64,000 nt of DNA from the NCBI RefSeq assembly GCF_054482525.1, contig NZ_CM137006.1; one strand, given 5' to 3'. Both the position numbers and the translations under genes were made by a program. Shown in pieces: positions 2,808 through 50,344 of this stretch (positions are counted from its first letter, which is position 1; every line of letters starts with the position of its first letter). Under the pieces are notes generated by a model. The model was not told the origin of the DNA. It saw only the letters and a program-made list of their open reading frames with translations, and did no database searches.

Positions 2808-4019
<1,212 letters not shown>

Positions 4020-5148: not shown

Positions 5149-5149
<1 letters not shown>
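4829..5149 (-). CDS. hcaC: Rieske ferredoxin of 3-phenylpropionate dioxygenase
   Basis: 106 aa; Rieske CxH…CxxH motifs (CSHG…CPLH). Confidence 0.85.
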
Positions 5150-7160
<2,011 letters not shown>

Positions 7161-8210: not shown

Positions 8211-9350
8211 ATGGTTTTGCAATCCACGCGCTGGTTGGCGCTCGGCTATTTCACATACTTTTTTAGTTACGGCATTTTTCTACCTTTCTGGAGCGTTTGG
8301 CTTAAGGGGATTGGTTTAACGCCAGAAACCATCGGCCTGTTATTGGGGGCAGGTCTGGTTGCCCGTTTTCTCGGGAGCTTGCTCATCGCGCCCCGCGTCA
8401 GCGATCCTTCTCGCCTGATTTCCGCCTTGCGCGTGCTGGCACTGCTGACACTTCTCTTTGCTGTCGCCTTCTGGGCGGGGGCGCACGTAGCGTGGCTGAT
8501 GCTGGTGATGATTGGCTTTAACCTCTTTTTCTCACCGCTGGTACCGTTGACCGATGCACTGGCGAATACGTGGCAAAAGCAGTTCCCGCTTGATTACGGC
8601 AAAGTGCGATTGTGGGGCTCGGTAGCGTTTGTCATTGGCTCGGCGCTGACGGGCAAACTGGTCAGTATGTTTGATTATCGGGTGATCCTCGCGCTGTTGA
8701 CGTTGGGCGTGGCATCCATGCTGCTCGGCTTTCTCATCCGTCCGACGATTCAGCCACAAGGGGCAAGCCGCCAGCAGGAGAGCACCGGTTGGTCTGCGTG
8801 GTTGGCGTTGGTTCGCCAGAACTGGCGCTTTCTGGCCTGCGTTTGTTTATTGCAGGGGGCGCATGCGGCCTATTACGGTTTTAGCGCCATTTACTGGCAG
8901 GCTGCTGGCTACTCGGCCTCGGCGGTGGGCTATTTGTGGTCGCTGGGCGTGGTGGCGGAAGTCATTATCTTTGCGCTGAGTAATAAACTTTTCCGCCGTT
9001 GTAGTGCACGCGATATGCTGTTGATCTCAGCGATTTGCGGCGTAGTGCGCTGGGGCATTATGGGAGCAACTACGGCGTTGCCGTGGTTGATAGTGGTGCA
9101 AATTCTGCATTGTGGCACCTTCACGGTCTGCCACCTGGCCGCCATGCGCTATATTGCCGCTCGCCAGGGTAGCGAAGTCATCCGTTTACAGGCGGTTTAC
9201 TCTGCCGTCGCGATGGGCGGCAGTATTGCGATCATGACCGTTTTCGCCGGTTTCCTGTATCAATATCTGGGCCACGGCGTGTTCTGGGTGATGGCGCTGG
9301 TGGCGCTTCCGGCAATGTTTTTGCGCCCGAAAGTTGTTCCCTCATGCTGA
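8211..9350 (+). CDS. hcaT: MFS transporter (probable 3-phenylpropionate permease)
   Basis: 379 aa, highly hydrophobic. Confidence 0.8.
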   Translation: MVLQSTRWLALGYFTYFFSYGIFLPFWSVWLKGIGLTPETIGLLLGAGLVARFLGSLLIAPRVSDPSRLISALRVLALLTLLFAVAFWAGAHVAWLMLVMIGFNLFFSPLVPLTDALANTWQKQFPLDYGKVRLWGSVAFVIGSALTGKLVSMFDYRVILALLTLGVASMLLGFLIRPTIQPQGASRQQESTGWSAWLALVRQNWRFLACVCLLQGAHAAYYGFSAIYWQAAGYSASAVGYLWSLGVVAEVIIFALSNKLFRRCSARDMLLISAICGVVRWGIMGATTALPWLIVVQILHCGTFTVCHLAAMRYIAARQGSEVIRLQAVYSAVAMGGSIAIMTVFAGFLYQYLGHGVFWVMALVALPAMFLRPKVVPSC

Positions 9351-10622
9351 TTCGAGCATTTTGCGGATCTGCTCCTGTTGATGTGTTGTCAACGTCAGGT
9401 CCGTATAGATCAGCGGTGGTGAAAAGAGCGGTAACGGCATGGTATAAGGAGCAATAATCAGTGCCGCGCTGCGCGGAGCGCCTGTCTGCAAAAATACCTT
9501 TACCGACATATGTTTAATGTTGAGCGGCAGTAACGTTAGTTCGCGTAGCTGCTGCTCAATCTGCGCTTCTCGCTCGCTATCATTCCCGGTCAGTAGAATA
9601 ATCTGTTTCTCATGCAGGTCGTTTTCCTGCATTAGCCAGGCACCAAAAATCACCGCGACCAGACCGCTTTCCTCATCAGAAAGATGGACGCCGTATTCAC
9701 TTTCAAATCCGGTCAGCGCCGCGCGGGTGGTGCGCACCAGGCGTGGGTACAGGCGGGCGAACTCTTCCGGCAGGGTGTTATCAATACCGATGGCAAACAA
9801 ACTGCGATTTAACGCCTGGGCGAGGTGGGTATAAAGCTGATCGCATAACCCCTGTTCATCATAAAAACGAACATTTCCCAGCTCACGAAAATGGTTTACC
9901 AGACGTTTGATAGACTTACGCAGTTGTCTGTCCCGCTGATGCGCATCCCGCAGTGGATCGGGAACCCGCAACATGGAAAAAAGTAATGCCATAAACAGTG
10001 GCTCATCAGGCGGTACAGGCTGGAGCGCCCGACGCTGCCAGTGGCGTCCAATTTCCTGCGCTACCTGAAATTCAAGGCAGGATTCCGCCCAGCGACGTTG
10101 GAGCGGATTAAACTGAGGCGTAATTCCAGCGTGGTGTTGCAGCAAACAATATTGCAGATACAGACACAGGAAATGAATATCGCGCGTTTCAAAGCGTTTT
10201 TGCAGCCGTCGGGAGCAGAGATTCACTAACGCTTGTAGATTGGTATCGTCGTAAAAGTTACGCGCAATTCCGCGCCGCTTCAGTTCACTCTTCAGGGCGG
10301 GGGTGAAATGGCTGGTAATAAATGACGGACACAGACGGAAACCACGTCGTAGCCAGTGAAATAAACACAAACGTTGGTTAAGCACTGTACCTTCAACCCG
10401 GTAGCTACCGTCATAACCAGTAGTCAGTGTGAGTTGATGATAGCGCAGGATCTCCCGTCCTGTTTCGCTGATATCAAGACTGGCAATATCATCATCCACA
10501 CCATTAAGCTCGCTGAAAGTTGCCGTGGTGGCGGTCAACCCCGGCTGAAAGAGTGTCAGCAAGATCTGGCAGCGGCGCTGGGGAGCCGAAAGGACAGATG
10601 GTGGAGCAAGCGTAGGCATCAT
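9342..10622 (-). CDS. csiE: Stationary-phase inducible protein CsiE (PRD-domain regulator-like)
   Basis: ORF 9342..10643; start at MMPTLAPP assumed; conserved neighbourhood. Confidence 0.7.
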   Translation of the reverse strand: MMPTLAPPSVLSAPQRRCQILLTLFQPGLTATTATFSELNGVDDDIASLDISETGREILRYHQLTLTTGYDGSYRVEGTVLNQRLCLFHWLRRGFRLCPSFITSHFTPALKSELKRRGIARNFYDDTNLQALVNLCSRRLQKRFETRDIHFLCLYLQYCLLQHHAGITPQFNPLQRRWAESCLEFQVAQEIGRHWQRRALQPVPPDEPLFMALLFSMLRVPDPLRDAHQRDRQLRKSIKRLVNHFRELGNVRFYDEQGLCDQLYTHLAQALNRSLFAIGIDNTLPEEFARLYPRLVRTTRAALTGFESEYGVHLSDEESGLVAVIFGAWLMQENDLHEKQIILLTGNDSEREAQIEQQLRELTLLPLNIKHMSVKVFLQTGAPRSAALIIAPYTMPLPLFSPPLIYTDLTLTTHQQEQIRKMLESA

Positions 10623-14244: not shown

Positions 14245-14375
14245 GTTTCGTGTTGCATCTGCGTTGACTGCACATACTCACTCCGGTCACTTACTTATGT
14301 AAGCTCCCGGAGATTCGTAAGTTTGTCAACTTGCTGAAACCCGAAACAGTTAGGTTAAAGATAACAAGATATTAG
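14245..14375. repeat. ERIC/IRU-like intergenic repeat
   Basis: Reverse complement of cactccggtcacttacttatgtaagctcccggagattc closely matches the ERIC core (…GGAGCTTACATAAGTAAGTGAC…) as I recall it. Confidence 0.55.
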
Positions 14376-14472
14376 AATCAGGCCGGAGTGTTTAGCGCTC
14401 CGTAAACACGGTCGTACATCCAGCCGGTAGCCTGGTTCCTTGCATTGAGTGATGTACGGAGTTTATAGAGCA

Positions 14473-19468: not shown

Positions 19469-19712
19469 TTTCCGCGTCATGCTTCACGCCGCAGATGCGT
19501 TGGCTGCGCTCGTTCACCCCAGTCACATAGTTATCTATGCTCCTGGGGCTTCACTCACTTGCCGCGTGATTCGGCCTTTTGGCCTCACCCCTCCGGGGCC
19601 AGCGCAAGCGCTGTTCAAAACGCAATGCGTTTTGTCCTGCAACGCGAATCATTTAGCGGAAAAATCCTGGGGCTGCCAACTGGCGGCCCTTTTACAAAGA
19701 AGGATAACTAGA

Positions 19713-21137: not shown

Positions 21138-21914
21138 ATGTCCGAAACAAAAAACGAACTTGAAGATCTGCTGGAAAAAGCAGCAACCGAACCGGCGCAC
21201 CGCCCGGCCTTTTTCCGTACGCTACTGGAATCCACCGTCTGGGTGCCTGGTACGGCGGCGCAGGGCGAGGCTGTGGTTGAAGATAGCGCGCTTGATTTAC
21301 AGCACTGGGAAAAAGAAGATGGCACCAGCGTCATTCCTTTTTTCACCTCGTTAGAAGCACTTCAACAGGCGGTTGAAGACGAACAGGCATTTGTCGTAAT
21401 GCCCGTTCGCACATTGTTTGAGATGACCCTTGGCGAAACGCTCTTCCTTAATGCCAAACTGCCAACCGGTAAAGAATTTATGCCGCGTGAAATCAGTTTG
21501 TTGATTGGTGAAGAAGGAAATCCGCTGAGCAGCCAGGAAGTACTGGAGGGCGGTGAATCGCTGATATTATCGGAAGTCGCAGAGCCACCAGCACAAATGA
21601 TTGATTCACTCACCACCTTATTTAAAACTATTAAGCCGGTGAAGCGTGCTTTTATTTGTTCAATTAAAGAGAACGAAGAGGCACAGCCTAATTTACTTAT
21701 TGGCATTGAAGCCGATGGTGATATCGAAGAAATTATTCAGGCGGCGGGAAGTGTAGCGACCGATACATTACCTGGCGATGAACCCATCGATATTTGTCAG
21801 GTGAAAAAAGGGGAAAAAGGAATTAGCCACTTTATTACCGAACATATTGCGCCATTCTATGAACGTCGCTGGGGTGGCTTTTTGCGTGACTTTAAACAGA
21901 ACCGGATAATCTAA
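21138..21914 (+). CDS. sseB: Enhanced serine sensitivity protein SseB
   Basis: ORF 21129..21914; start at MSETKNEL; conserved neighbourhood. Confidence 0.8.
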   Translation: MSETKNELEDLLEKAATEPAHRPAFFRTLLESTVWVPGTAAQGEAVVEDSALDLQHWEKEDGTSVIPFFTSLEALQQAVEDEQAFVVMPVRTLFEMTLGETLFLNAKLPTGKEFMPREISLLIGEEGNPLSSQEVLEGGESLILSEVAEPPAQMIDSLTTLFKTIKPVKRAFICSIKENEEAQPNLLIGIEADGDIEEIIQAAGSVATDTLPGDEPIDICQVKKGEKGISHFITEHIAPFYERRWGGFLRDFKQNRII

Positions 21915-21945
21915 AATATGCCGCCCCAAAGGGCGGCATTCGGGC
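21915..21945. terminator. Bidirectional rho-independent terminator (sseB and convergent small-ORF transcript)
   Basis: Hairpin gccgccccaaagggcggc flanked by A-run on one side and T-rich on the other. Confidence 0.6.
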
Positions 21946-22083
21946 TTACTTGCTGCTCTGAAGTTTGTTAACCACCAGTAAATTGTTACCGGAGAGACTC
22001 CGGTTATTATTTACCTCGGTTAACAGCGCACCAGAAACAATAAGTACGATACAAAAGCACCGTATCTTCATTGTGCGGTCCAT
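21946..22083 (-). CDS. Small hydrophobic peptide (candidate type I toxin, TimP-like) inside RyfA-like transcript
   Basis: Minus-strand ORF MDRTMKIRCFCIVLIVSGALLTEVNNNRSLSGNNLLVVNKLQSSK; hydrophobic core; followed by terminator hairpin; absent from supplied ORF track (below length cut-off). Confidence 0.4.
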   Translation of the reverse strand: MDRTMKIRCFCIVLIVSGALLTEVNNNRSLSGNNLLVVNKLQSSK

Positions 22084-22665
22084 GCGAAGACCGCATCACG
22101 ACAGCACCACTGGCGATATTGCCGCGATAGCAAGCGCTGAGACGCGCTTGCCCTAACGGTCGCGGAACATCCTTTCCTTGAGCCAGCGCCCGCTTGCGAG
22201 ACGGCGGAAAGGGCCGGTGTCGATAATACGCTAAATAAACAATGATTACTCTCTTTCGCTTGACAAAAAGAGAGTTACTGGCGAGTATTGTGTCCGCTGA
22301 GACGCGCTTGCATTACTACGGTAATACAATCTGCTGGAAAGGCCGCGAACCAAACCAGCAACAAATAACCGCCTGATTTTGGCGGTTTTTTGTTGCTTAA
22401 AGAAAGTGAATTTACATGTTTAAGTAATATCTTTTACCGGTTAGTATTTTTAATATTGAGCGGGATTTGTTTATATTTGTCTGAATTCGGACTGATAAGC
22501 CAAATGAATTCAAAATCTATCCTTTTTTATCTACTTGACATCGTTGATGCATAAAGCGAGTATTGAGTAGACGAGATACACTTGCAGTAATACAATCTGC
22601 TGGAAAGGCCGCGAACCAGACCAGCAATAAAAAACCGCCAAATTCGGCGGTTTTTTATTGCCTGT
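22084..22665. ncRNA. ryfA: RyfA-family small RNA locus with repeated sRNA-like units and terminator hairpins
   Basis: No long ORF; three related units sharing gctgagacgcgcttgc / aatacaatctgctggaaaggccgcgaacca; hairpin+U-run terminators at 22363-22392 and 22630-22662. Confidence 0.5.
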
Positions 22666-22672: not shown

Positions 22673-23518
22673 TTATTTTACGGGCTCAACCGGTAAATCT
22701 GCTCGTGCGCCCCATTCACTCCATGCGCCGTCGTACAGTTTCACGTTTGGCACATCCAGCGTCGCGAGTGCCAACAAAACCACGGCTGCCGTTACACCAG
22801 AGCCGCAGCTGACGATAATCGGTTTGTCATAGCTGACGCCGCGACTAAAAAATATCGCATCCAGTTCATCGGTCGTTTTTAGTTCGCCTTCGCGCACCAG
22901 TTCCGTCCACGGAACGTTCAATGCACCGGGAATATGTCCGCGACGTAAACCTGGGCGAGGTTCATCAACTTCTGCGTTAAAACGTGCAGCCGGGCGGGCA
23001 TCAATAATTTGCGCCGTATTTTCATGGCTTGCCAATAACACATCGGTGACTTTCACCACGGCTTCAGGATTAAACTTGGCGTTAAACTCTCCTTCCGGCA
23101 GCTCTACTGCACCTTCTTCTAACAGCAGATCATCGCGCTGCCAGCCTGCAAGTCCACCCCCCAGAATCGACACTTTCTCTACACCAAAGGTGCGCAGCAT
23201 CCACCATGCTCGTGGGGCTGAGAAAAGATTACCTTCGTCATAGACAATCAGGTGCTTATCCTGGTTAACGCCTAACTCACGCATCGCCACGGCGAACGTT
23301 TCCGGGCGCGGCAGCATGTGCGGAAGCGGGGAAGTGTGATCAGAAAGCGCTTCGATATCAAAAAACACTGCGCCGGGAATATGTCCATTCAGATACTCCT
23401 GAGCAACGTTACGATCTTCCTGTCCAGGCGACGCCATGCGGGCATCGATAATCTGAATTTCCGGGTCATCAATATGTTCGGCGAGCCAGTCGGCTCCTAC
23501 AAACCATGTCGTGGACAT
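22673..23518 (-). CDS. sseA: 3-mercaptopyruvate sulfurtransferase (tandem rhodanese)
   Basis: ORF 22673..23677; start at MSTTWFVGADWL (281 aa); active-site CGSGVTA. Confidence 0.85.
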   Translation of the reverse strand: MSTTWFVGADWLAEHIDDPEIQIIDARMASPGQEDRNVAQEYLNGHIPGAVFFDIEALSDHTSPLPHMLPRPETFAVAMRELGVNQDKHLIVYDEGNLFSAPRAWWMLRTFGVEKVSILGGGLAGWQRDDLLLEEGAVELPEGEFNAKFNPEAVVKVTDVLLASHENTAQIIDARPAARFNAEVDEPRPGLRRGHIPGALNVPWTELVREGELKTTDELDAIFFSRGVSYDKPIIVSCGSGVTAAVVLLALATLDVPNVKLYDGAWSEWGARADLPVEPVK

Positions 23519-23724
23519 AGGCATCTCCATTTTTGCCGGGGTTAGGCTAAATTGTCGGATGTTTAGTGAAATGCGACAAGCAAAAGAGGCTGATTTGGCT
23601 GTCTGAGCCACAATTCTCACTAAAATTCGGATTGTATGGGCGTGATACTGAATTACATAACGTAAATTCTCACGCATAATAATTATTCGACGTTGCTAAC
23701 GGGCCATTGTGGCAGGGATGAAAA

Positions 23725-26700
23725 ATGAAAAAGTTACGCGTAGCCGCCTGCATGCTAATGCTGGCGCTGGCAGGGTGCGACAACAACGATAACGCGCCAA
23801 CAGCGGTGAAAAAAGATGCGCCTTCTGAAGTTACTAAAGCGGCCTCTTCAGAAAACGTGAGTTCAGCAAAACTTTCCGCGCCGGAGCGACAAAAACTGGC
23901 CCAACAGAGTGCCGGTAAGGCGCTGACATTGCTGGATCTCTCTGAAGTTCAACTTGATGGCGCAGCCGCGCTGGTGCTGACGTTCTCCATTCCTCTCGAC
24001 CCGGATCAGGATTTCTCACGCGTTATCCATGTCGTCGATAAGAAAAGCGGCAAAGTGGATGGTGCCTGGGAGCTGTCAGATAATCTTAAAGAGTTGCGTT
24101 TACGCCACCTCGAACCGAAACGTGATTTGATCGTCACTATTGGCAAGGAGGTCAAAGCACTCAACAACGCAACCTTCAGTAAAGATTACGAAAAAACTAT
24201 AACTACCCGCGATATCCAACCCAGCGTCGGTTTTGCCAGCCGTGGTTCGTTGTTACCTGGTAAAGTTATTGAAGGGCTGCCGGTAATGGCGCTCAACGTT
24301 AACAATGTTGATGTTAACTTCTTCCGTGTGAAGCCCGAATCTCTGCCTGCATTCATTAGCCAATGGGAATACCGCAATTCGCTGGCGAACTGGCAGTCTG
24401 AAAAACTGCTGCAGATGGCGGATCTGGTTTATACCGGACGGTTTGATCTCAATCCTGCGCGTAACACCCGTGAAAAATTATTGCTGCCGCTGGGTGATAT
24501 CAAACCGCTTCAGCAGGCAGGCGTGTATCTGGCTGTGATGAATCAGGCTGGACGTTACGATTACAGTAATCCCGCGACGCTGTTTACGTTAAGTGATATC
24601 GGCGTTTCAGCTCACCGTTATCACAATCGTCTGGATATCTTTACCCAAAGTCTGGAAAACGGCGCGGCCCAGCAAGGAATAGAAGTCTCTTTATTAAATG
24701 AGAAAGGGCAGACTCTGACTCAGGCAACCAGTGATGCTCAGGGGCATGTGCAGCTGGAAAATGATAAAAACGCGGCATTACTGCTGGCGCGTAAAGACGG
24801 TCAGACAACGCTACTCGATTTAAAACTTCCGGCGCTGGACTTAGCAGAATTTAACATTGCTGGCGCGCCAGGCTATAGCAAACAGTTTTTCATGTTTGGC
24901 CCGCGCGATCTTTATCGCCCTGGTGAAACAGTCATCCTCAATGGTTTATTGCGTGATGCAGATGGTAAAGCATTGCCCGATCAACCCATCAAGTTAGACG
25001 TGATTAAACCCGACGGGCAGGTACTCAGGAGCGTCGTTAGTCAGCCGGAGAATGGCCTCTACCACTTTACCTGGCCACTCGATAGCAATGCGGCAACCGG
25101 TATGTGGCATATTCGCGCTAACACGGGCGATAACCAGTACCGGATGTGGGATTTCCACGTCGAAGATTTTATGCCAGAGCGCATGGCGCTGAATCTGACC
25201 GGTGAGAAAACCCCGCTAACGCCGAAAGATGAAGTGAAATTCTTCGTGGTGGGGTACTACCTGTATGGTGCGCCTGCTAATGGTAATACTTTGCAAGGGC
25301 AACTTTTCCTGCGCCCACTGCGTGAAGCTGTGTCAGCCTTACCTGGTTTCGAATTCGGCGATATAGCTGCCGAAAATCTTTCCCGCACGCTGGATGAAGT
25401 TCAGTTGACGCTGGATGATAAAGGGCGTGGCGAAGTTTCTACAGAAAGCCAGTGGAAGGAAACGCATTCCCCATTGCAGGTTATTTTCCAGGGTAGTTTG
25501 CTGGAATCGGGCGGTCGCCCGGTGACGCGCCGCGCTGAGCAGGCTATCTGGCCTGCCGATGCATTGCCGGGGATCCGTCCGCAGTTCGCCTCGAAATCGG
25601 TTTACGATTATCGCACTGACAGCACGGTGAAACAGCCCATTGTTGATGAAGACAGTAACGCCGCTTTTGACATCGTTTATAGCGATGCGCAAGGCGTGAA
25701 AAAAGCCGTGTCGGGCTTGCAGGTGCGCCTGATTCGCGAACGCCGCGATTACTACTGGAACTGGTCAGAAGATGAAGGCTGGCAATCACAGTTTGATCAA
25801 AAAGATCTGATTGAAAATGAACAAACTCTGGATCTGAAAGCGGACGAAACCGGCAAGGTCAGTTTCCCGGTAGAGTGGGGCGCTTATCGTCTGGAAGTCA
25901 AAGCGCCGAATGAAGCGGTCAGTAGTGTGCGTTTCTGGGCTGGCTATAGCTGGCAGGACAACAGCGACGGGAGCGGTGCCGTGCGACCCGACCGTGTCAC
26001 GCTGAAACTGGATAAAGCCAGTTATCGCCCTGGCGATACCATTAAGTTGCATATTGCCGCGCCAACGGCGGGTAAAGGTTATGCGATGGTCGAGTCCAGT
26101 GAAGGGCCGCTGTGGTGGCAAGAGATTGATGTTTCGGCTCAAGGGCTGGATCTGACGATTCCGGTCGATAAAACCTGGAATCGTCATGATCTGTATTTAA
26201 GTACGCTGGTGGTACGTCCTGGCGATAAATCTCGCTCCGCGACGCCAAAACGCGCGGTTGGGGTGTTGCATCTGCCGCTTGGTGATGAAAACCGTCGCCT
26301 CGATCTGGCGCTGGAAACCCCCACCCAAATGCGCCCCAATCAGCCATTAACCGTGAAAATTAAAGCCAGCAATAAAAACGGTGAGATGCCAAAACAGGTG
26401 AATGTGCTGGTGTCTGCCGTTGATAGCGGTGTGCTGAATATTACTGATTACGTTACCCCCGATCCGTGGCAGGCGTTCTTTGGTCAGAAACGCTATGGTG
26501 CAGACATTTACGATATTTACGGTCAGGTCATTGAAGGTCAGGGGCGTCTGGCAGCTCTGCGTTTTGGTGGCGATGGTGATGAGCTGAAACGTGGTGGTAA
26601 ACCGCCGGTCAATCACGTCAAAATTGTCGCGCAGCAGGCGCTGCCGGTAACGCTCAACGAACAGGGTGAAGGCTCGGTTACACTGCCGATTGGTGATTTT

Positions 26701-28686
26701 AACGGTGAATTGCGCGTCATGGCGCAAGCCTGGACGGCAGATGACTTCGGTAGCAACGAAAGCAAAGTGATAGTTGCCGCACCGGTGATTGCTGAACTGA
26801 ACATGCCGCGCTTTATGGCGAGTGGCGATACCTCGCGTCTGACGCTGGATATCACTAATCTTACCGATAAACCGCAAAAACTGAACGTTGCCCTGACCGC
26901 CAGTGGTTTGCTTGAACTGGTTAGCAACTCTCCCGCACCTGTTGAATTAGCGCCAGGTGTGCGTACTACGCTGTTTATCCCGGTGCGAGCATTGCAAGGT
27001 TATGGCGATGGAGAAATTCAGGCCACCATTAGCGGGTTAGCGTTACCGGGTGAAACCGTTGCCGATCAGCATAAGCAGTGGAAAATCGGCGTCCGTCCGG
27101 CGTTCCCGGCACAAACGGTTAATTACGGTACGGCGATACAGCCTGGTGAGACATGGGCGATTCCGGCGGATGGATTGCAAAACTTCTCACCTGTTACGCT
27201 GGAAGGGCAATTGTTGTTGAGCGGCAAACCACCGCTGAACATCGCACGTTATATCAAAGAGTTAAAAGCGTATCCGTACGGCTGTCTTGAGCAAACCGCC
27301 AGCGGCCTGTTCCCGTCACTTTATACCGACGCAGCCCAACTGCAGGCGTTGGGCATCAAAGGCGACAGTGATGAGAAACGCCGTGCATCGGTCGATATCG
27401 GCATTTCCCGTTTGCTGCAAATGCAACGTGATAACGGCGGCTTTGCGCTGTGGGATAAAAACGGTGACGAAGAGTACTGGCTGACGGCTTACGTGTTGGA
27501 TTTCCTGGTCCGCGCAGGCGAACAGGGTTACAGCGTGCCGACAGACGCCATTAACCGGGGTAATGAGCGTCTGCTGCGCTATTTACAAGATCCGGGCATG
27601 ATGTCGATCCCGTACGCGGATAATCTCAAAGCCAGTAAATTCGCCGTACAGTCTTACGCTGCGCTGGTGCTGGCCCGTCAGCAAAAAGCTCCACTGGGTG
27701 CGCTGCGTGAAATCTGGGAGCATCGTGCAGATGCCGCTTCTGGTTTACCGCTGCTGCAACTTGGCGTTGCGCTGAAAACCATGGGTGATGCGACGCGTGG
27801 TGAAGAAGCAATTGCGTTGGCGCTGAAAACGCCGCGTAATAGTGATGAGCGGATATGGCTGGGTGATTACGGTAGTCCACTGCGCGACAACGCGTTAATG
27901 CTCTCCTTGCTGGAAGAAAATAAACAGCTACCCGATGAGCAGTACACTTTGCTGAACACACTTTCGCAGCAGGCGTTTGGTGAACGCTGGCTATCGACGC
28001 AGGAAAGTAACGCGTTGTTCCTGGCTGCCCGTACGATTCAGGATTTACCGGGTAAATGGCAGGCGCAAACCTCTTTCTCAGCTGAGCCGCTGACAGGCGA
28101 GAAAGCGCAAAACAGTAATCTGAATAGCGATCAACTTGCTACCTTACAGGTGACCAACAGTGGCGATCAGCCGTTATGGCTGCGTGTGGATGCCAGCGGT
28201 TATCCGCAATCCGCACCTTTACCGGCGAACAATGTGCTGCAAATCGAGCGTCATATTCTTGGTACTGATGGTAAGAGCAAATCGCTGGACTCGTTACGTA
28301 GCGGCGATCTGGTGCTGGTGTGGTTGCAGGTAAAAGCCAGCAACAGCGTGCCGGATGCGTTAGTCGTTGATTTACTGCCAGCGGGTCTGGAACTGGAAAA
28401 CCAGAATCTGGCGAACGGTAGCGCCAGCCTGGAGCAAAGTGGTGGCGAAGTGCAGAACTTACTGAACCAGATGCAGCAGGCGAGTATTAAGCACATTGAG
28501 TTCCGTGACGATCGCTTTGTGGCGGCGGTTGCCGTTGATGAATACCAACCGGTAACGCTGGTGTATCTGGCGCGGGCGGTGACGCCGGGAACGTATCAGG
28601 TGCCGCAGCCTATGGTGGAATCGATGTATGTTCCCCAATGGCGGGCGACCGGCGCGGCTGAAGATTTGCTGATTGTCAGACCGTAA
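23725..28686 (+). CDS. yfhM: Alpha-2-macroglobulin family lipoprotein
   Basis: 1653 aa; lipobox LALAGC; thioester motif CLEQ; A2M architecture. Confidence 0.9.
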   Translation: MKKLRVAACMLMLALAGCDNNDNAPTAVKKDAPSEVTKAASSENVSSAKLSAPERQKLAQQSAGKALTLLDLSEVQLDGAAALVLTFSIPLDPDQDFSRVIHVVDKKSGKVDGAWELSDNLKELRLRHLEPKRDLIVTIGKEVKALNNATFSKDYEKTITTRDIQPSVGFASRGSLLPGKVIEGLPVMALNVNNVDVNFFRVKPESLPAFISQWEYRNSLANWQSEKLLQMADLVYTGRFDLNPARNTREKLLLPLGDIKPLQQAGVYLAVMNQAGRYDYSNPATLFTLSDIGVSAHRYHNRLDIFTQSLENGAAQQGIEVSLLNEKGQTLTQATSDAQGHVQLENDKNAALLLARKDGQTTLLDLKLPALDLAEFNIAGAPGYSKQFFMFGPRDLYRPGETVILNGLLRDADGKALPDQPIKLDVIKPDGQVLRSVVSQPENGLYHFTWPLDSNAATGMWHIRANTGDNQYRMWDFHVEDFMPERMALNLTGEKTPLTPKDEVKFFVVGYYLYGAPANGNTLQGQLFLRPLREAVSALPGFEFGDIAAENLSRTLDEVQLTLDDKGRGEVSTESQWKETHSPLQVIFQGSLLESGGRPVTRRAEQAIWPADALPGIRPQFASKSVYDYRTDSTVKQPIVDEDSNAAFDIVYSDAQGVKKAVSGLQVRLIRERRDYYWNWSEDEGWQSQFDQKDLIENEQTLDLKADETGKVSFPVEWGAYRLEVKAPNEAVSSVRFWAGYSWQDNSDGSGAVRPDRVTLKLDKASYRPGDTIKLHIAAPTAGKGYAMVESSEGPLWWQEIDVSAQGLDLTIPVDKTWNRHDLYLSTLVVRPGDKSRSATPKRAVGVLHLPLGDENRRLDLALETPTQMRPNQPLTVKIKASNKNGEMPKQVNVLVSAVDSGVLNITDYVTPDPWQAFFGQKRYGADIYDIYGQVIEGQGRLAALRFGGDGDELKRGGKPPVNHVKIVAQQALPVTLNEQGEGSVTLPIGDFNGELRVMAQAWTADDFGSNESKVIVAAPVIAELNMPRFMASGDTSRLTLDITNLTDKPQKLNVALTASGLLELVSNSPAPVELAPGVRTTLFIPVRALQGYGDGEIQATISGLALPGETVADQHKQWKIGVRPAFPAQTVNYGTAIQPGETWAIPADGLQNFSPVTLEGQLLLSGKPPLNIARYIKELKAYPYGCLEQTASGLFPSLYTDAAQLQALGIKGDSDEKRRASVDIGISRLLQMQRDNGGFALWDKNGDEEYWLTAYVLDFLVRAGEQGYSVPTDAINRGNERLLRYLQDPGMMSIPYADNLKASKFAVQSYAALVLARQQKAPLGALREIWEHRADAASGLPLLQLGVALKTMGDATRGEEAIALALKTPRNSDERIWLGDYGSPLRDNALMLSLLEENKQLPDEQYTLLNTLSQQAFGERWLSTQESNALFLAARTIQDLPGKWQAQTSFSAEPLTGEKAQNSNLNSDQLATLQVTNSGDQPLWLRVDASGYPQSAPLPANNVLQIERHILGTDGKSKSLDSLRSGDLVLVWLQVKASNSVPDALVVDLLPAGLELENQNLANGSASLEQSGGEVQNLLNQMQQASIKHIEFRDDRFVAAVAVDEYQPVTLVYLARAVTPGTYQVPQPMVESMYVPQWRATGAAEDLLIVRP

Positions 28687-30999
28687 ATGCCTCGCCAGTT
28701 AACAAAACGCGGCTGCTGGATAATGCTGGCAGCTGCGCCCTTTCTCCTTTTTCTTGCAGCGTGGGGAGCTGATAAACTCTGGCCTCTACCGCTGCATGAA
28801 GTCAATCCCGCACGAGTGGTCGTGGCGCAGGATGGTACGCCGCTCTGGCGTTTCGCCGATGCTGAGGGCATCTGGCGTTATCCGGTAACAATCGAAGATG
28901 TTTCTCCACGTTACCTTGAAGCGCTGATCAATTATGAAGATCGCTGGTTCTGGAAGCATCCGGGGGTGAATCCATTCTCGGTGGCGCGCGCAGCATGGCA
29001 AGATCTTGCTTCGGGACGGGTTATTTCCGGTGGCAGCACGCTCACTATGCAGGTTGCTCGTTTGCTTGATCCTCACCCCAAAACATTTGGCGGCAAAATT
29101 CGCCAACTCTGGCGCGCGTTGCAACTGGAGTGGCATCTGTCTAAGCGTGAAATTCTGACCTTGTATCTAAACCGCGCTCCGTTTGGCGGTACGTTGCAGG
29201 GGATCGGTGCGGCAAGTTGGGCTTATCTCGGAAAATCGCCTGCGAATTTAAGCTATTCCGAGGCGGCAATGCTGGCGGTGTTGCCGCAAGCGCCCAGCCG
29301 ACTACGCCCGGATCGCTGGCCGGAACGTGCCGAAGCCGCGCGTAATAAAGTTCTCGAACGGATGGCCGTGCAAGGTGTGTGGTCCCGTGAGCAGGTAAAA
29401 GAGTCAAGGGAAGAACCCATCTGGCTGGCACCCCGACAAATGCCGCAATTGGCACCGCTGTTTTCGCGCATGATGCTCGGTAAAAGCAAAAGCGACAAAA
29501 TCGTTACTACGCTGGATGCCGGTCTTCAACGACGTCTGGAAGAACTGGCGCAAAACTGGAAAGGACGATTACCACCGCGCAGCTCACTGGCGATGATCGT
29601 GGTTGACCATACCGATATGCGTGTTCGCGGTTGGGTGGGATCGGTTGATCTCAACGATGATTCACGCTTTGGTCATGTTGATATGGTCAATGCGATCCGA
29701 TCGCCAGGATCGGTGCTCAAACCGTTTGTTTATGGTCTGGCGTTGGGTGAAGGTTTGATCCACCCGGCATCACTGCTGCAAGACGTCCCCCGGCGCACCG
29801 GTGATTATCGACCTGGCAACTTTGACAGCGGTTTTCATGGCCCGATCAGCATGAGTGAGGCGCTGGTGCGCTCGCTGAACTTACCTGCTGTGCAGGTGCT
29901 GGAAGCCTATGGACCGAAACGGTTTGCGGCAAAGTTACGCAATGTTGGATTGCCGTTATATTTGCCCAACGGTGCTGCACCGAATCTTTCGCTCATTCTC
30001 GGCGGCGCTGGTGCAAAACTGGAAGATATGGCGGCAGCGTATACCGCGTTTGCTCGCCACGGCAAGGCAGGCAAATTGCGCTTACAGCCTGACGATCCGC
30101 TGCTTGAACGGCCTTTAATGTCGTCGGGGGCGGCGTGGATCATTCGCCGGATTATGGCTGATGAAGCGCAACCCTTACCGGATAGTGCCTTGCCGCGCGT
30201 CGCCCCACTGGCATGGAAAACGGGCACCAGCTATGGCTATCGTGATGCCTGGGCGATTGGGGTTAACGCTCGCTATGTTATTGGGATCTGGACTGGCAGA
30301 CCGGACGGCACGCCCGTTGTTGGTCAGTTTGGCTTTGCCAGCGCCGTACCATTGTTGAATCAGGTCAATAATATCTTACTGTCGCGCAGTGCGAATCTGC
30401 CGGAAGACCCACGTCCTGACTCTGTAAGTCGTGGCGTTATCTGCTGGCCGGGCGGACAGTCTTTGCCGGAAGGTGACGGTAACTGCCGCCGCCGCCTGGC
30501 AACCTGGCTGCTGGACGGGAGTCAGCCGCCAACTCTATTACTGCCGGAGCAGGAAGGCATTAATGGCATTCGTTTCCCCATCTGGCTGGATGAAAACGGC
30601 AAACGTGTTGCCGCTGATTGCCCTCAGGCGCGACAAGAAATGATAAATGTCTGGCCGCTACCGCTGGAACCCTGGTTGCCCGCATCAGAACGCCGCGCTG
30701 TGCGCTTACCACCAGCCTCGACAATTTGCCCGCCATACGGTCACGATGCACAACTCCCGCTGCAGCTGACAGGCGTGCGCGATGGCGCGATTATTAAACG
30801 CTTACCGGGGGCAGCGGAAGCGACTTTGCCGTTGCAATCAAGTGGAGGGGCAGGTGAACGCTGGTGGTTTCTGAATGGCGAACCGCTAACTGAACGCGGG
30901 CGCAACGTGACCCTGCATTTGACGGACAAAGGCGATTATCAATTGCTGGTGATGGATGAGGTGGGGCAAATAGCAGCAGTGAAATTTGTCATGCAATAG
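28687..30999 (+). CDS. pbpC: Penicillin-binding protein 1C (glycosyltransferase/transpeptidase)
   Basis: 770 aa; glycosyltransferase motifs (EDRWFWKHPGVN, GGSTLTMQ) and transpeptidase SxxK; adjacent to yfhM. Confidence 0.9.
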   Translation: MPRQLTKRGCWIMLAAAPFLLFLAAWGADKLWPLPLHEVNPARVVVAQDGTPLWRFADAEGIWRYPVTIEDVSPRYLEALINYEDRWFWKHPGVNPFSVARAAWQDLASGRVISGGSTLTMQVARLLDPHPKTFGGKIRQLWRALQLEWHLSKREILTLYLNRAPFGGTLQGIGAASWAYLGKSPANLSYSEAAMLAVLPQAPSRLRPDRWPERAEAARNKVLERMAVQGVWSREQVKESREEPIWLAPRQMPQLAPLFSRMMLGKSKSDKIVTTLDAGLQRRLEELAQNWKGRLPPRSSLAMIVVDHTDMRVRGWVGSVDLNDDSRFGHVDMVNAIRSPGSVLKPFVYGLALGEGLIHPASLLQDVPRRTGDYRPGNFDSGFHGPISMSEALVRSLNLPAVQVLEAYGPKRFAAKLRNVGLPLYLPNGAAPNLSLILGGAGAKLEDMAAAYTAFARHGKAGKLRLQPDDPLLERPLMSSGAAWIIRRIMADEAQPLPDSALPRVAPLAWKTGTSYGYRDAWAIGVNARYVIGIWTGRPDGTPVVGQFGFASAVPLLNQVNNILLSRSANLPEDPRPDSVSRGVICWPGGQSLPEGDGNCRRRLATWLLDGSQPPTLLLPEQEGINGIRFPIWLDENGKRVAADCPQARQEMINVWPLPLEPWLPASERRAVRLPPASTICPPYGHDAQLPLQLTGVRDGAIIKRLPGAAEATLPLQSSGGAGERWWFLNGEPLTERGRNVTLHLTDKGDYQLLVMDEVGQIAAVKFVMQ

Positions 31000-31147
31000 T
31001 CTGTTTTGTCCCTGATTGTTGCTTAAACTGGGTTTATTTTAAAAAAATGTTACCTTCATCAATAGTCAACGGCCTTGTTGCTCATTATAATCCGCGCCAT
31101 CTCGTACGCTGGTACAGACAACAACAGAACAATTTACAGAGGTAAAA

Positions 31148-31579
31148 ATGGCTATTGAACGTACTTTTTCCATCATCAAACCGAACGCGGTAGCAAAAAA
31201 CGTCATAGGTAATATCTTTGCGCGCTTTGAAGCTGCAGGGTTCAAAATTGTCGGCACCAAAATGCTGCACCTGACCGTTGAACAGGCTCGTGGCTTTTAT
31301 GCTGAACACGATGGAAAACCGTTCTTTGATGGTCTGGTTGAATTCATGACTTCTGGCCCGATCGTTGTTTCCGTGCTGGAAGGTGAAAATGCTGTTCAGC
31401 GTCACCGCGATCTGCTGGGCGCGACCAATCCGGCAAATGCACTGGCCGGTACTCTGCGTGCTGATTACGCTGACAGCCTGACCGAAAATGGTACCCACGG
31501 TTCTGATTCCGTCGAATCTGCCGCTCGCGAAATCGCTTTTTTCTTCGGCGAAGGCGAAGTGTGCCCGCGCACCCGTTAA
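31148..31579 (+). CDS. ndk: Nucleoside diphosphate kinase
   Basis: 143 aa; NGTHGSDS active-site His motif. Confidence 0.95.
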
Positions 31580-34207: not shown

Positions 34208-35326
34208 ATGCATAACCAGGCTCCAATTCAACGTAGAAAATCAACACGTATTTACGTTGGGAATGTGCCGATTGGCGATGGTGCTCCCATCGCCGTACAG
34301 TCCATGACCAATACGCGCACGACAGACGTCGAAGCAACGGTCAATCAAATCAAGGCGTTGGAACGTGTTGGCGCTGATATCGTCCGTGTCTCCGTACCGA
34401 CGATGGACGCGGCAGAAGCGTTCAAACTCATCAAACAGCAGGTTAACGTGCCGCTGGTGGCTGACATCCATTTCGACTATCGCATTGCGCTGAAAGTAGC
34501 GGAATACGGCGTCGATTGTCTGCGTATTAACCCTGGCAATATCGGTAATGAAGAGCGTATTCGCATGGTGGTTGACTGTGCGCGCGATAAAAACATTCCG
34601 ATCCGTATTGGCGTTAACGCCGGATCGCTGGAAAAAGATCTGCAAGAAAAGTATGGCGAACCGACGCCGCAGGCATTGCTGGAATCCGCCATGCGCCATG
34701 TTGATCATCTTGATCGCCTGAACTTCGATCAGTTCAAAGTCAGCGTGAAAGCGTCAGACGTCTTCCTCGCTGTTGAGTCTTATCGTTTGCTGGCAAAACA
34801 GATCGATCAGCCGCTGCATCTGGGGATCACCGAAGCGGGTGGCGCGCGCAGCGGGGCGGTTAAATCCGCCATTGGTTTAGGTCTGCTGCTGTCTGAAGGC
34901 ATCGGCGACACGCTGCGCGTATCGCTGGCGGCCGATCCGGTTGAAGAGATCAAAGTCGGTTTCGATATTTTGAAATCGCTGCGTATCCGTTCGCGAGGGA
35001 TCAACTTCATCGCCTGCCCGACCTGTTCGCGTCAGGAATTTGATGTTATCGGTACGGTTAACGCGCTGGAGCAACGCCTGGAAGATATCATCACTCCGAT
35101 GGACGTTTCGATTATCGGCTGCGTGGTGAATGGCCCAGGTGAGGCGCTGGTTTCTACACTCGGCGTCACCGGCGGCAACAAGAAAAGCGGCCTCTATGAA
35201 GATGGCGTGCGCAAAGACCGTCTGGACAACAACGATATGATCGACCAGCTGGAAGCACGCATTCGTGCGAAAGCCAGTCAGCTGGACGAAGCGCGTCGAA
35301 TTGACGTTCAGCAGGTTGAAAAATAA
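34208..35326 (+). CDS. ispG: 4-hydroxy-3-methylbut-2-enyl diphosphate synthase
   Basis: 372 aa; Cys ligands CPTCSR…GCVVNGPGE. Confidence 0.9.
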
Positions 35327-35436
35327 TAACGTGATGGGAAGCGCCTCGCTTCCCGTGTATGATTGAACCCGCATGGCTCCCGAAACATTGAGGGAAGCGT
35401 TGAGGGTTCATTTTTATATTCAGAAAGAGAATAAAC

Positions 35437-45053: not shown

Positions 45054-45099
45054 TTAACAGCTAACTCATAGCAACTCATTTCTATTCAGATATTAACTC

Positions 45100-45131
45100 A
45101 ACCCTCTGTTTTTACAGAGGGTTTTTGTTTT
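45100..45131 (+). terminator. Rho-independent terminator after guaA
   Basis: accctctgtttttacagagggt hairpin followed by ttttgttttt. Confidence 0.7.
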
Positions 45132-45245
45132 TATGTATTCATCTCTATTCACTCTACACCATATTTTTCGGCGGTACAGGTGACGGTATTACCCTAAAGG
45201 TATACTCTCATACCGTCATGAAAATGGTTTCTATACGGGTGAATT

Positions 45246-46496
45246 GTGCTTACCGATACAAAATTAAAAAACCTCAAGCCGCAGGACAAACTGTACAAGG
45301 TCTCCGATCGTGACGGGCTGTATGTAGCTGTGCTTACGTCAGGCACGGTCTCGTTTCGCTATGACTACCGTATCAACGGTCGTCGCGAAACACTGGTAAT
45401 CGGGCAGTATGGGCGTGACGGTATCAGCCTGGCAGAAGCGCGAGAAGAACTGATTGCTGCAAAGAAGCTGCTTAAAGCAGGCCAGTCGCCGGCTGCGGCT
45501 AAACGTGACGGTATCAAAAAGATTCGTGGTGCCGAGACGTTTGCGGTACATACCGACAGTTATATGAAACACGTCATCCTGGCTGACAGTACCCGCGCAA
45601 TGAAGCAGGCGGTGATTGACCGTGACATACTTCCGGTTCTTGGTAACAAAATGATGGCTGAAATTACCACATCGATGGTTCGTGATTTGTGTGACCGGAT
45701 TGTCGAACGCGGTGGTCGGGCAACAGCAGTACAGGCCAGGGAGATCATCAGCAGCGTATACCGTCACGCCAATGACCGTGGTCATGGTTTGTTTAATCCT
45801 GCGGCTGACATTAAACCTTCGTCTATCGCCATATTTAAACCACGAGAGCGAACACTGACACCAGAAGAAATTGGCCTGTTCTTCCGCACGCTGGATGCCA
45901 TTGGTGCTATGGGCACTATGAAAATGGCTTTAAAGCTGGTGCTTATCACTATGGTTCGTAAAGGCGAATTCACCAACGCAACGTGGGATGAAATAGATTT
46001 TAAAAAATGGACATGGACAATTCCTTCAGACCGCATGAAGGGAAGCCGGGCGCACGTTATTTACCTGCCTAAACAGGCTCAGGATATATTGGTCGGGTTG
46101 CAGATGTGCGCTGGTGGAAGTGAATATCTGGTTCCTGGTCGTTACAATTTCCGGAAGCCATTATCTAATGCCGCGCTGAACTCTCTGATCGACAGAACGG
46201 TGAAAATAATAAATGAAGATGGTGAGCATATTCAGGGCTTCACCGTACACGATATGCGCCGTACAGCCAGTACGTTGTTGCATGAGGCTGGTTATCCTTC
46301 AGACTGGATTGAAAAGGCTCTGGCACATGAGCAGAAAGGTGTGCGCGCCGTATATAACAAAGCGGAATACGCCAGACAGCGCGCCTACATGTTGCAGCAG
46401 TGGGCCGATATGATTGATTCCTGGATTAACGGGGAGCATACGGATCTGATTCCGTTCTCCCCGTCGAAGTTTGAGAAGTGGATGGCGGGGGAATAA
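45246..46496 (+). CDS. int: Phage tyrosine integrase (P4/CP4-57-like, N-terminal arm-binding domain)
   Basis: 416 aa; C-terminal catalytic region with HDMRRTASTLL and conserved R/H/Y context; first gene after guaA. Confidence 0.9.
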   Translation: MLTDTKLKNLKPQDKLYKVSDRDGLYVAVLTSGTVSFRYDYRINGRRETLVIGQYGRDGISLAEAREELIAAKKLLKAGQSPAAAKRDGIKKIRGAETFAVHTDSYMKHVILADSTRAMKQAVIDRDILPVLGNKMMAEITTSMVRDLCDRIVERGGRATAVQAREIISSVYRHANDRGHGLFNPAADIKPSSIAIFKPRERTLTPEEIGLFFRTLDAIGAMGTMKMALKLVLITMVRKGEFTNATWDEIDFKKWTWTIPSDRMKGSRAHVIYLPKQAQDILVGLQMCAGGSEYLVPGRYNFRKPLSNAALNSLIDRTVKIINEDGEHIQGFTVHDMRRTASTLLHEAGYPSDWIEKALAHEQKGVRAVYNKAEYARQRAYMLQQWADMIDSWINGEHTDLIPFSPSKFEKWMAGE

Positions 46497-46499
46497 CGT

Positions 46500-46694
46500 T
46501 TAATAGTTCTGCTGATTTTCTTCCATCTCTGCTTCTGCTGCCAGTGATTCAATTTTGTTTTCGAATATTGCTGACAGTGTTGCAAATTCAGCATCAGTGA
46601 CAGCGGGAATTGGAACAAACCTGATCCCGCTGTGTGCAAGCATGTTTGCAGTTTCAAGGCATTTTCTTAAATCTGCTGGTGATGCCCTGTTCAT
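46500..46694 (-). CDS. Hypothetical small phage protein (start uncertain)
   Basis: ORF 46500..46814 overlaps methyltransferase 3' end in another frame; internal Met at 46694 would abut the methyltransferase stop. Confidence 0.3.
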   Translation of the reverse strand: MNRASPADLRKCLETANMLAHSGIRFVPIPAVTDAEFATLSAIFENKIESLAAEAEMEENQQNY

Positions 46695-47353
46695 GCAGCA
46701 CGCTCCCGCCCCTGGTTGTCTGTTGGTGACATCGGAGAATTGCTGAATGCATTTGTTAATCCGCCAATATCCAACGCGTATCCTGGGTGTAGTTGCACTG
46801 CCGGGCCTTCGCACTGGTTACCCCAAACATCGAAGCCATGAGACGTCTGGCGGGCGAACAGTTCAATGCGAGAAACATCGCCTAACAATTGCACAAGTTT
46901 TTCACGAACGACATCTGGTTTTCTTGAATGCTCAAGCCGCGGTGCGGTAAATGACTGAACGATACCTGCATTAATGCGCGGAGGTAGTTTTCCCTTTACT
47001 GCAAACAGGCAATCTTCACTATTGGCGCGAGTCATGTGTCCCATACCCATAACCAGTTTATCTGGTTGTCGACTACCACATTTTATCCACGTGAAGCCCT
47101 TCATGGTCATCAGACGGAATCCCCAGGCTTCAACAACTTTTAGTGCTTCGAGTGGTTGTGTTGGCACCCACCACATGGCCAACAGACAGTTTTCATCGGC
47201 CAAATCCCACACAGGAAGGCGGCAGATATCCAGCACACTCATAACAGGATATTTAAAACCGGCACCGCGATTACCATCTGCGGCTTTGTCCCGGTATACC
47301 CAGGGTGGATCTGCATAGATTAGTGTGTATTTCTTAGTCATAAACCACCCCAC
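46691..47353 (-). CDS. MT-A70 family DNA N6-adenine methyltransferase (orphan, phage-encoded)
   Basis: DPPW catalytic motif (LIYADPPWVY); no adjacent restriction endonuclease. Confidence 0.8.
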   Translation of the reverse strand: MGWFMTKKYTLIYADPPWVYRDKAADGNRGAGFKYPVMSVLDICRLPVWDLADENCLLAMWWVPTQPLEALKVVEAWGFRLMTMKGFTWIKCGSRQPDKLVMGMGHMTRANSEDCLFAVKGKLPPRINAGIVQSFTAPRLEHSRKPDVVREKLVQLLGDVSRIELFARQTSHGFDVWGNQCEGPAVQLHPGYALDIGGLTNAFSNSPMSPTDNQGRERAA

Positions 47354-47633: not shown

Positions 47634-47742
47634 TTAATCCAACCCTCTCTGAAAATTAATGCCAGCAGATAAAGCCATGCTGAAACAGAGGCCAGGAATA
47701 AGTACCATCCTGACCATTTGCTCCAGTGCCTTAGCAGCACAC

Positions 47743-47991: not shown

Positions 47992-48040
47992 AAATACCTC
48001 TCTTGGTTGCAGTGCGGCGCGCGTGGCGCCGCGGTGGTGG

Positions 48041-50325: not shown

Positions 50326-50344
50326 CTTGCTGAAAACTATAGTT

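Follow-up and report, generated by a model that had tools for sequence, protein, structure and literature searches.

The yfhM-pbpC gene pair of an Escherichia coli chromosome: a type I alpha-2-macroglobulin gene directly followed by the gene of penicillin-binding protein 1C

Within the 64,000 nucleotides of contig NZ_CM137006.1 (assembly GCF_054482525.1) analyzed here, hereafter the window, positions 23725 to 30999 are, as a whole, very probably best explained as the chromosomal yfhM-pbpC operon of E. coli. Its first gene codes for ECAM, a type I bacterial alpha-2-macroglobulin (A2M), and its second for penicillin-binding protein (PBP) 1C. The pair is already known, is annotated as textbook knowledge and belongs to ordinary core-genome biology, as the preliminary description had recognized in calling it established. 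That the two proteins serve together in defence and repair of the cell envelope is a hypothesis from the literature, discussed in the last section.

Identity of the Locus

The program-made list of open reading frames (ORFs) contains two plus-strand frames, both starting with ATG and both free of internal stops, namely yfhM (23725..28686, 1653 aa) and pbpC (28687..30999, 770 aa); all features described within them are on the same strand. The coordinates given earlier agree to the base with this list and with the raw sequence, and the assignments to yfhM and pbpC were upheld by the homology search that had been proposed as a check, carried out with Pfam, NCBIfam, PDB and RefSeq. The ORFs are far beyond chance, with Pfam matches reaching E = 4e-51 and a match of 1562 bits to the NCBIfam PbpC equivalog, and dN/dS values among six E. 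coli lineages show strong purifying selection on both (0.05-0.12 over the two genes; 0.07-0.12 for yfhM and 0.05-0.07 for pbpC).

The host DNA of the window is the E. coli chromosome. RefSeq annotation gives both genes the same boundaries in a 100%-identical strain, and it places yfhM upstream and ndk downstream of pbpC. Of 5,426 complete E. coli genomes, 5,423 have the pair under the names yfhM and pbpC; identity across the locus is at least 99% in just 3 of 5,425 genomes, the majority being at 96-98%.

A candidate sigma-70 promoter for yfhM, ATTACA-17-CATAAT (23652..23680, plus strand), was picked up by a consensus scan within the 206-bp divergent sseA-yfhM intergenic region and is weak, agreeing with the consensus at 9 of 12 positions. 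Neither the promoter scan nor the terminator scan carries much weight, since matches were no more frequent than in shuffled sequence. No RNA family of Rfam was found within 23725-30999. Four antisense ORFs within the pair (up to 176 aa) had no Pfam matches.

YfhM, a Type I Alpha-2-Macroglobulin

The product of yfhM matches the PDB entries 4rtd, 4ziq and 5a42 ("lipoprotein YfhM") over residues 23/40-1653 with E = 0 and about 3600 bits, and eleven A2M-family Pfam domains are all found above their gathering cut-offs (bMG1, bMG2, bMG3, MG2, bMG5, bMG6, A2M_BRD, A2M, TED, CUB, and bMG10). It is the same gene as that of ECAM/YfhM of E. coli K-12 (4ZIQ, 4RTD, 5A42), with the same length of 1653 aa and the full set of domains. 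The roughly 29 amino-acid differences from the K-12-derived allele are allelic only, and the lipobox, the thioester motif and the bait region are identical to those of K-12 ECAM. The Salmonella protein SaA2M (PDB 4U48) ranks with ECAM among the closest known systems.

The preliminary description of a thioester-containing lipoprotein is borne out by both motifs. The N-terminal signal peptide (23725..23781; MKKLRVAACMLMLALAGC followed by DNN in the translation) has the lipobox L-A-G-C, in the context MKKLRVAACMLMLALAG-C18-D, with the Cys18 codon at 23776-23778 and Asp19 next to it at position +2; this segment does not vary among six E. coli lineages. An Asp at +2 is the signal for retention of lipoproteins in the inner membrane. 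Its presence in YfhM agrees with the anchoring of ECAM in the inner membrane reported in the literature (PMC4498604). The thioester motif C-L-E-Q (residues 1187-1190; 27283..27294), located by a motif scan in the context YPYGCLEQTASG, falls inside the Pfam TED_complement match (residues 1176-1281) and is invariant in E. coli; thioester formation has been described for ECAM (PMC4498604).

Residues 923-942 (26491..26550) were assigned as the bait-region core, inside the bait-region domain, with the help of Pfam, whose A2M_BRD match spans residues 759-905, and of the observation that Arg923-Leu942 is the segment absent from elastase-cleaved ECAM (PMC4498604). A hypervariable or positively selected bait region was considered and rejected, as no variation is seen at residues 906-960 among six E. 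coli lineages and the dN/dS of the whole gene is low. Among the same lineages, the CUB domain is the part of ECAM richest in variable columns, with 9 in 62 residues.

Judged by its sequence, YfhM lacks none of the features that define a type I (thioester) bacterial A2M, having the LAGC lipobox, the Asp at +2, the complete MG/bait/TED/CUB series of domains and the CLEQ motif. The cysteine of the lipobox, that of CxEQ and the neighboring pbpC place it in type I. The type II macroglobulins, such as MagD of P. aeruginosa and YfaS of E. coli, share the A2M/MG fold family but lack both cysteines, and their genes lie in six-gene mag operons rather than beside pbpC (PMC3735191).

PbpC, a Class A Penicillin-Binding Protein with an Unusual Glycosyltransferase Motif

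The 770-residue product of pbpC scores 1562.5 bits against the NCBIfam equivalog NF008414 PbpC (cut-off 1121) and 911.3 bits against TIGR02073 PBP_1c (cut-off 494.2), and it falls far under the cut-offs of the PBP1A and PBP1B equivalogs. With a full-length equivalog match, an unchanged length of 770 aa, three Pfam domains (Transgly, Transpeptidase, and BiPBP_C) and the same yfhM-pbpC-ndk position, it differs from known E. coli PBP1C by allelic variation only; among six E. coli lineages 30 residues of PbpC vary, none of them in the catalytic motifs. A hydrophobic N-terminal stretch at about residues 10-28 (CWIMLAAAPFLLFLAAWGA; 28714..28770), read from the translation, is the putative membrane anchor. 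It is followed by the GT51 glycosyltransferase domain (residues 60-226; 28864..29364; Transgly, E = 6.5e-52), the transpeptidase domain (residues 330-519; 29674..30243; PF00905, E = 8e-11) and the C-terminal BiPBP_C domain (residues 687-767; 30745..30987; PF06832, E = 2.8e-17), which is the hallmark of the PBP1C family. PbpC has in common with PBP1A and PBP1B the GT51-transpeptidase order and the motifs EDxxFxxHxG, SxxK, SxN, and KTG, whereas the BiPBP_C domain is extra.

The transpeptidase motifs are intact (S342-V-L-K, S396-L-N, and K511-T-G), and at each of their residues 139-148 of the roughly 148 representatives of the family agree. Motif 1 of the GT51 domain reads E84-DRWFWKHPG, and its Glu84 (codon 28936-28938) corresponds to the catalytic base of GT51 enzymes (PMC3608906); this Glu is found in 141 of 143 representatives. 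By domain architecture, PbpC is thus a bifunctional class A PBP, as had been stated earlier. That label is true of the domains, and SxxK, SxN and KTG are all intact; it is qualified by a Gln in motif 3 of the GT51 domain, by the NCBI product name, "peptidoglycan glycosyltransferase PbpC", which refers to the glycosyltransferase only, and by reviews that know of no role for PBP1C in the laboratory (PMC7554673).

Motif 3 of PbpC is G-K-I-R-Q, in which Gly stands for the Arg and Gln140 (codon 29104-29106) for the second conserved Glu of the RKxxE found in PBP1A and PBP1B. In an alignment with five solved PBP1a GT domains, Gln140 lies opposite the Glu of RKIKE, RKINE, RKITE, and RKARE. The domain is clearly of the GT51 family despite this residue, which alone departs from the pattern. 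Family-wide counts were taken from a library clustered at 50%, an earlier homologue search having yielded only proteins at least 85% identical; among about 143 representatives, position 140 is Gln in 80, Glu in 58, and Asp in 3. The residue was left unmentioned in the preliminary description, and no mention of its state in PBP1C was found in the literature searched.

From the motif, Gln140 may mean that the PbpC polymerase is attenuated. A broader version of this idea, in which Gln140 would mark a large PBP1C subfamily with an intrinsically attenuated or activation-dependent polymerase, switched on for example by protease-triggered ECAM, appears very unlikely to us; if true, it could explain the absence of a housekeeping role and the failure to replace PBP1A or PBP1B. 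We also regard as rather unlikely that PBP1C proteins of the Gln140 type are not primarily polymerases and that their attenuated or conditionally activated GT51 domain serves instead, for example, as a glycan-strand binder, a scaffold, or an ECAM-switched module. Such a function would be in keeping with the replacement of the second Glu in E. coli and in the 80 Gln-type representatives while the motif-1 Glu and the transpeptidase motifs are nearly invariant, and with the inability of PBP1C to stand in for PBP1A or PBP1B (PMC7554673). Against it, position 140 flips between Glu and Gln within the family, and neither a compensating acidic residue nor a perfectly co-varying column was found there (the next column reached 1.16 of 2). 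Nor does the Gln/Glu state track the pairing with A2M, an idea that was rejected because all 4 further homologues with Gln, and 3 of the 4 with Glu, turned out to be paired. This toggling, with neither co-variation nor a link to pairing, suggests that either residue is tolerated. The work of Schiffer and Holtje of 1999 is said to have described a moenomycin-sensitive transglycosylase activity of PBP1C, which also counts against a non-polymerase function. So does the finding that overproduced PBP1c brought back LdtD-dependent labelling in a mutant without PBP1b (PMC6131605).

The yfhM-pbpC Junction

As had been noted before, the yfhM stop codon directly abuts the pbpC start codon. The raw sequence reads AGACCG TAA ATG CCT, with the stop codon occupying 28684-28686 and the start codon 28687-28689, so that the junction TAAATG (28684..28689) has no gap and keeps the same frame. 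It has been proposed to reflect translational coupling, a plausible inference from the abutment. In its favor, no Shine-Dalgarno (SD) sequence was found upstream of pbpC (anti-SD complementarity 0 kcal/mol), and a hairpin is predicted at 28644-28696 (z = -2.78), in which the pbpC start region would pair with the 3' coding sequence of yfhM. Across lineages, tight junctions go with weak or no SD sequences, and the locus with a 351-nt gap has a strong one (-12 kcal/mol), which likewise favors coupling. The two genes would be transcribed together, and ribosomes terminating at the yfhM TAA would restart at the adjoining ATG, which would tie the output of PBP1C to that of ECAM.

Alternatively, pbpC might be translated on its own, in an SD-independent manner or thanks to a promoter lying within the 3' end of yfhM, and the abutment would then reflect compact packing. 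The missing SD sequence is not diagnostic of coupling because rodZ, a bona fide gene of the same window, likewise has zero SD complementarity. The A2M gene and pbpC are also separated by gaps of 19-351 nt in more distant relatives, one of which has a strong SD sequence for pbpC itself. Coupling is thus not universal, as in some lineages pbpC follows only after 53-351 nt and has an SD sequence of its own. For the E. coli locus, however, independent translation seems unlikely to us, as six E. coli lineages and a Citrobacter-like locus all share TAAATG, stop and start overlap by 1 nt (TGATG) in three distant lineages, and the consensus scan gave no plus-strand promoter-like or terminator-like site there, with none of the former upstream of pbpC. 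The predicted sequestration of the start region in the hairpin also speaks for coupling rather than for independent initiation.

Conservation of the Pair and its Proposed Role

The pairing of the two genes, described earlier as conserved, extends well beyond the E. coli genomes. In 11 sampled gene neighborhoods of PBP1C homologues, an A2M gene and pbpC follow each other in that order, on one strand and directly adjoining, in 10 cases, at 34-86% PbpC identity. The partner A2M has CxEQ in 10 of 11 paired lineages, E. coli included; in one paired lineage the thioester cysteine has been lost (SLEQ) and the pairing is kept. To judge from these neighborhoods, the A2M-PBP1C pairing is ancient.

The adjacency could still be inherited synteny with no functional link, in which case ECAM and PBP1C would act independently and the idea of joint defence and repair would be wrong. 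Consistent with this, the literature found reports no shared phenotype or physical interaction of the two proteins, the natural E. coli strain NCTC9100 has kept yfhM and lost pbpC together with ndk, and the remaining sampled PBP1C homologue (L010) has no A2M neighbor. We nevertheless hold mere synteny to be improbable, as order and orientation are kept down to 34-50% identity amid entirely different flanking genes, and synteny that is not selected for is not expected to last that far.

Later papers (PMC4498604) credit Budd et al. 2004 with the hypothesis that the pair protects or repairs the envelope after protease attack. The preliminary description had worded this role as "thought to". The mechanism and the defence hypothesis are treated in several papers (PMC4498604, PMC3735191, PMC7554673, PMC6131605). 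By sequence and homology, ECAM has a lipobox through which it is lipid-anchored, Asp at +2, a bait region open to proteases and, buried within it, the thioester motif Cys1187-Gln1190. According to the literature on a near-identical protein, a protease reaching the periplasm cuts the bait and causes ECAM to change shape, and the exposed thioester then links covalently to the protease and traps it. PBP1C is a class A PBP with a putative membrane anchor, a glycan-polymerizing GT51 domain, an intact penicillin-binding transpeptidase domain and a BiPBP_C domain. Under the hypothesis of Budd et al., ECAM would neutralize invading proteases and PBP1C would add glycan synthesis to mend the wall. This joint defence-and-repair role is still a hypothesis some twenty years after it was proposed; counting against it, reviews credit PBP1C with no role in laboratory growth conditions (PMC7554673), and Gln140 may mean an attenuated polymerase.

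As it stands, the locus itself matters little, being a textbook-annotated operon of the E. coli core genome that had been correctly recognized. What the comparison offers is sharper targets for experiments on the role of the pair, namely the pairing in 10 of 11 sampled, very distant lineages, its survival in one lineage of the loss of the thioester cysteine, and the Glu/Gln toggle at a residue that is normally counted among those of the GT51 active site.

The yfhM-pbpC Gene Pair in Escherichia coli

The preliminary description had assigned 23725-30999 to an alpha-2-macroglobulin (A2M) gene and a PBP1C gene, and both its observation and its interpretation are correct. The ORF list places yfhM at 23725-28686 (+ strand, ATG start, 1653 aa) and pbpC at 28687-30999 (+ strand, ATG start, 770 aa), which agrees exactly with those coordinates, and neither translation contains an internal stop. 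The two assignments are upheld by Pfam, NCBIfam equivalogs, PDB matches and RefSeq annotation. The pair represents already-known biology.

When positions 23500-31200 were compared by megablast with 5,426 complete E. coli genomes, the locus was matched in 5,425 of them, always on the chromosome, with at least 80% of the query covered in 5,423. Identity across the locus is 100% in three strains (SCU-102, PCN033 and 19KM1776), where RefSeq names the underlying genes sseA, yfhM (alpha2-macroglobulin), pbpC and ndk. Only 3 of the 5,425 genomes reach at least 99%, the next best being 98.5%, which places the window in a lineage that has been sampled only sparsely. Positions 1-45055 are collinear with SCU-102 at 99.99% identity.

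Comparison with five other E. coli lineages gave dN/dS values of 0.07-0.12 for yfhM and 0.05-0.07 for pbpC, comparable to that of neighboring sseA. Neither gene varies in length across the six lineages, and no difference falls in the bait region, CLEQ, the lipobox or any PbpC motif; variable residues are densest in the CUB domain of YfhM (9 in 62). Rare natural lesions occur nonetheless. Strain NCTC9100, one of only 3 of the 5,426 genomes without a near-complete locus, has lost pbpC and ndk through a deletion that starts 17 nt into pbpC (9187-9364 of its sampled locus, L007), leaving yfhM intact and followed by rlmN, and strain HL15 carries an IS5 inside the matched region.

Domain Organization of YfhM and PbpC

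The Pfam domains of YfhM (bMG1, bMG2, bMG3, MG2, bMG5, bMG6, bait-region domain, A2M, TED, CUB and bMG10) constitute the full bacterial macroglobulin architecture. Nearly the whole mature chain matches the solved ECAM structures 4rtd, 4ziq and 5a42 (~3600 bits), and Salmonella SaA2M (4u48) is matched with ~3000 bits. The N-terminus reads MKKLRVAACMLMLALAG-C18-D19, a lipobox followed by Asp at position +2, a residue that serves as an inner-membrane retention signal for lipoproteins. CLEQ, the thioester motif, occupies residues 1187-1190. Type I bacterial macroglobulins are contrasted with the MagD type by a lipobox Cys, the Cys of CLEQ and a pbpC neighbor (PMC3735191), all three of which are present in YfhM. 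The mechanism of ECAM is experimentally grounded: bait cleavage is followed by a conformational change, thioester exposure and covalent capture (PMC4498604).

PbpC scores above the cut-offs of the equivalogs NF008414 (1562 bits against 1121) and TIGR02073 (911 against 494), and far under those of PBP1A and PBP1B. Its Pfam domains are Transgly (residues 60-226), Transpeptidase (330-519) and BiPBP_C (687-767). Motif 1 of the GT51 glycosyltransferase domain (E84-DRWFWKHPG) and the three penicillin-binding motifs (S342VLK, S396LN and K511TG) are present. The bifunctionality of PBP1C is described as 'predicted', and the protein has no known role in standard conditions and cannot substitute for PBP1A/1B (PMC4498604; PMC7554673); one phenotype has been reported upon its overexpression (PMC6131605). 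The hypothesis that ECAM and PBP1C act jointly in defense and repair is consistently credited to Budd et al. 2004 (PMC4498604), and no resolution of it was found among yfhM papers since 2016.

Conservation of the A2M-pbpC Pairing

Genomic context was sampled for eleven PBP1C-family proteins, 34-86% identical to the PbpC of the window. For ten of them the gene immediately upstream is a same-strand A2M gene (~1600-1700 aa), a count that includes two A2M genes cut off at contig ends; this bears out the conserved pairing claimed earlier. The flanking genes are otherwise unrelated. The lone unpaired homolog lies on a 4.9-kb contig, between ParA-like and alanine dehydrogenase genes. CxEQ is found in nine of the ten A2M partners. 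The tenth (809-5947 of locus L020, neighbor of the relative P0122), 40% identical to YfhM, has SLEQ in place of CLEQ and has thus lost the thioester cysteine; it still precedes a Gln-type pbpC (see below) and then ndk, so the thioester is not strictly needed for pairing.

In the window, ndk (31148-31579) lies downstream of pbpC, and it also follows pbpC immediately at the loci L018, L019 and L020, in relatives with only 54-61% identity. This adjacency suggests that the conserved block in Enterobacterales may be A2M-pbpC-ndk. No terminator-like site was seen between pbpC and ndk in the window scan; a good promoter-like match, TAGTCA-17-TATAAT, is located there at 31063-31091.

The yfhM-pbpC Junction

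As the preliminary description had noted, the yfhM stop TAA (28684-28686, + strand) directly adjoins the pbpC start codon, the boundary reading AGACCG-TAA-ATG-CCT with both genes in the same reading frame. Anti-Shine-Dalgarno pairing in the 20 nt ahead of the pbpC ATG is 0 kcal/mol, compared with -6.0 ahead of yfhM and -7.1 ahead of ndk. Another gene of the window, rodZ, likewise scores 0. Initiation at the next in-frame pbpC start, codon 13, would cut into the membrane anchor. The six E. coli lineages, which elsewhere differ by 2-4.5% in yfhM/pbpC, all share TAAATG, as does a Citrobacter-like locus. A 120-nt segment around the junction is predicted to fold at -47.3 kcal/mol (z = -2.78), more stably than 200 of 200 shuffles, with pbpC codons 2-4 paired with yfhM 3' coding sequence. 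In the lineages sampled, Shine-Dalgarno pairing is weak or absent (0 to -4.8) where at most 1 nt separates the two genes, three TGATG overlaps among them, and strong (-12.0) at the locus whose gap is 351 nt. The junction, the Shine-Dalgarno values, the comparison across lineages and the predicted fold are all consistent with termination-reinitiation coupling but fall short of proof: rodZ scores the same as pbpC, and the promoter and terminator scans were uninformative.

Other Features of the Window

Positions 45056-64000 are absent from SCU-102, the break falling at the 3' end of guaA, and form the left arm of a prophage inside which the window ends. Its kin are Escherichia phages TL-2011b and HEMP4 (84-86% covered, 97-99.6% identity). 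It encodes a replication initiator (51638-52486), small and large terminase subunits (57937-60083), a head-tail adaptor (61520-63199) and a tRNA-Arg with anticodon UCU (60795-60871, - strand; Rfam 69 bits, ARAGORN); just 113 of 5,426 E. coli genomes contain all of the 1.1 kb around this tRNA, to which partial matches also occur on plasmids.

Just upstream of the pair, between sseB and sseA, lie ryfA RNA (21913-22217, - strand), within which the reference annotation places timP, a gene for a small toxic membrane protein (~21946-22071), and the IS128 sRNA (22349-22526, - strand). The mechanical sseA ORF (22673-23677, - strand, 334 aa) would occupy most of the sseA-yfhM intergenic region; RefSeq annotates 281 aa (22673-23518), and the longer form is probably not used. 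Rfam matches are clear for the iscRS element (14362-14471) and sroE (35326-35417) and borderline for AaHKsRNA22 in the pepB-iscX area (19570-19642, - strand; 45.3 bits, gathering score 39.8).

A Gln/Glu Dimorphism at GT51 Motif 3

The canonical GT51 motif 3 is RKxxE, whereas PbpC has GKIRQ. In a residue-level alignment with five solved PBP1a glycosyltransferase domains, GKIRQ stands opposite RKIKE, RKINE, RKITE and RKARE, so that Gln140 (codon 29104-29106) aligns with the second conserved glutamate of GT51 enzymes. The role of this glutamate and the effect of its replacement by Gln in PBP1b are reportedly the subject of Terrak 1999, Lovering 2007 and Yuan 2007.

Across 150 PBP1C representatives (P0121-P0270, from a library clustered at 50% identity), Gln occupies this position in 80, Glu in 58 and Asp in 3; the ~45 nearest relatives of E. 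coli PbpC are all of the Gln type. The motif-1 Glu, which is the catalytic base (PMC3608906), is retained in 141 of 143 representatives, and the transpeptidase motifs are nearly invariant. The Gln and Glu types cluster, since in 119 of 136 cases the nearest neighbor shares the type; with 45% identity within types and 42% between them, they are not deeply separated. No other column of the family alignment co-varies strongly with the Gln/Glu state. In the sampled loci both types have an A2M neighbor, so motif-3 state and pairing are independent. No mention of this state in PBP1C was found in the searchable literature, and the dimorphism is the sole mildly new item; it is a minor descriptive point for the family unless biochemistry proves its importance.
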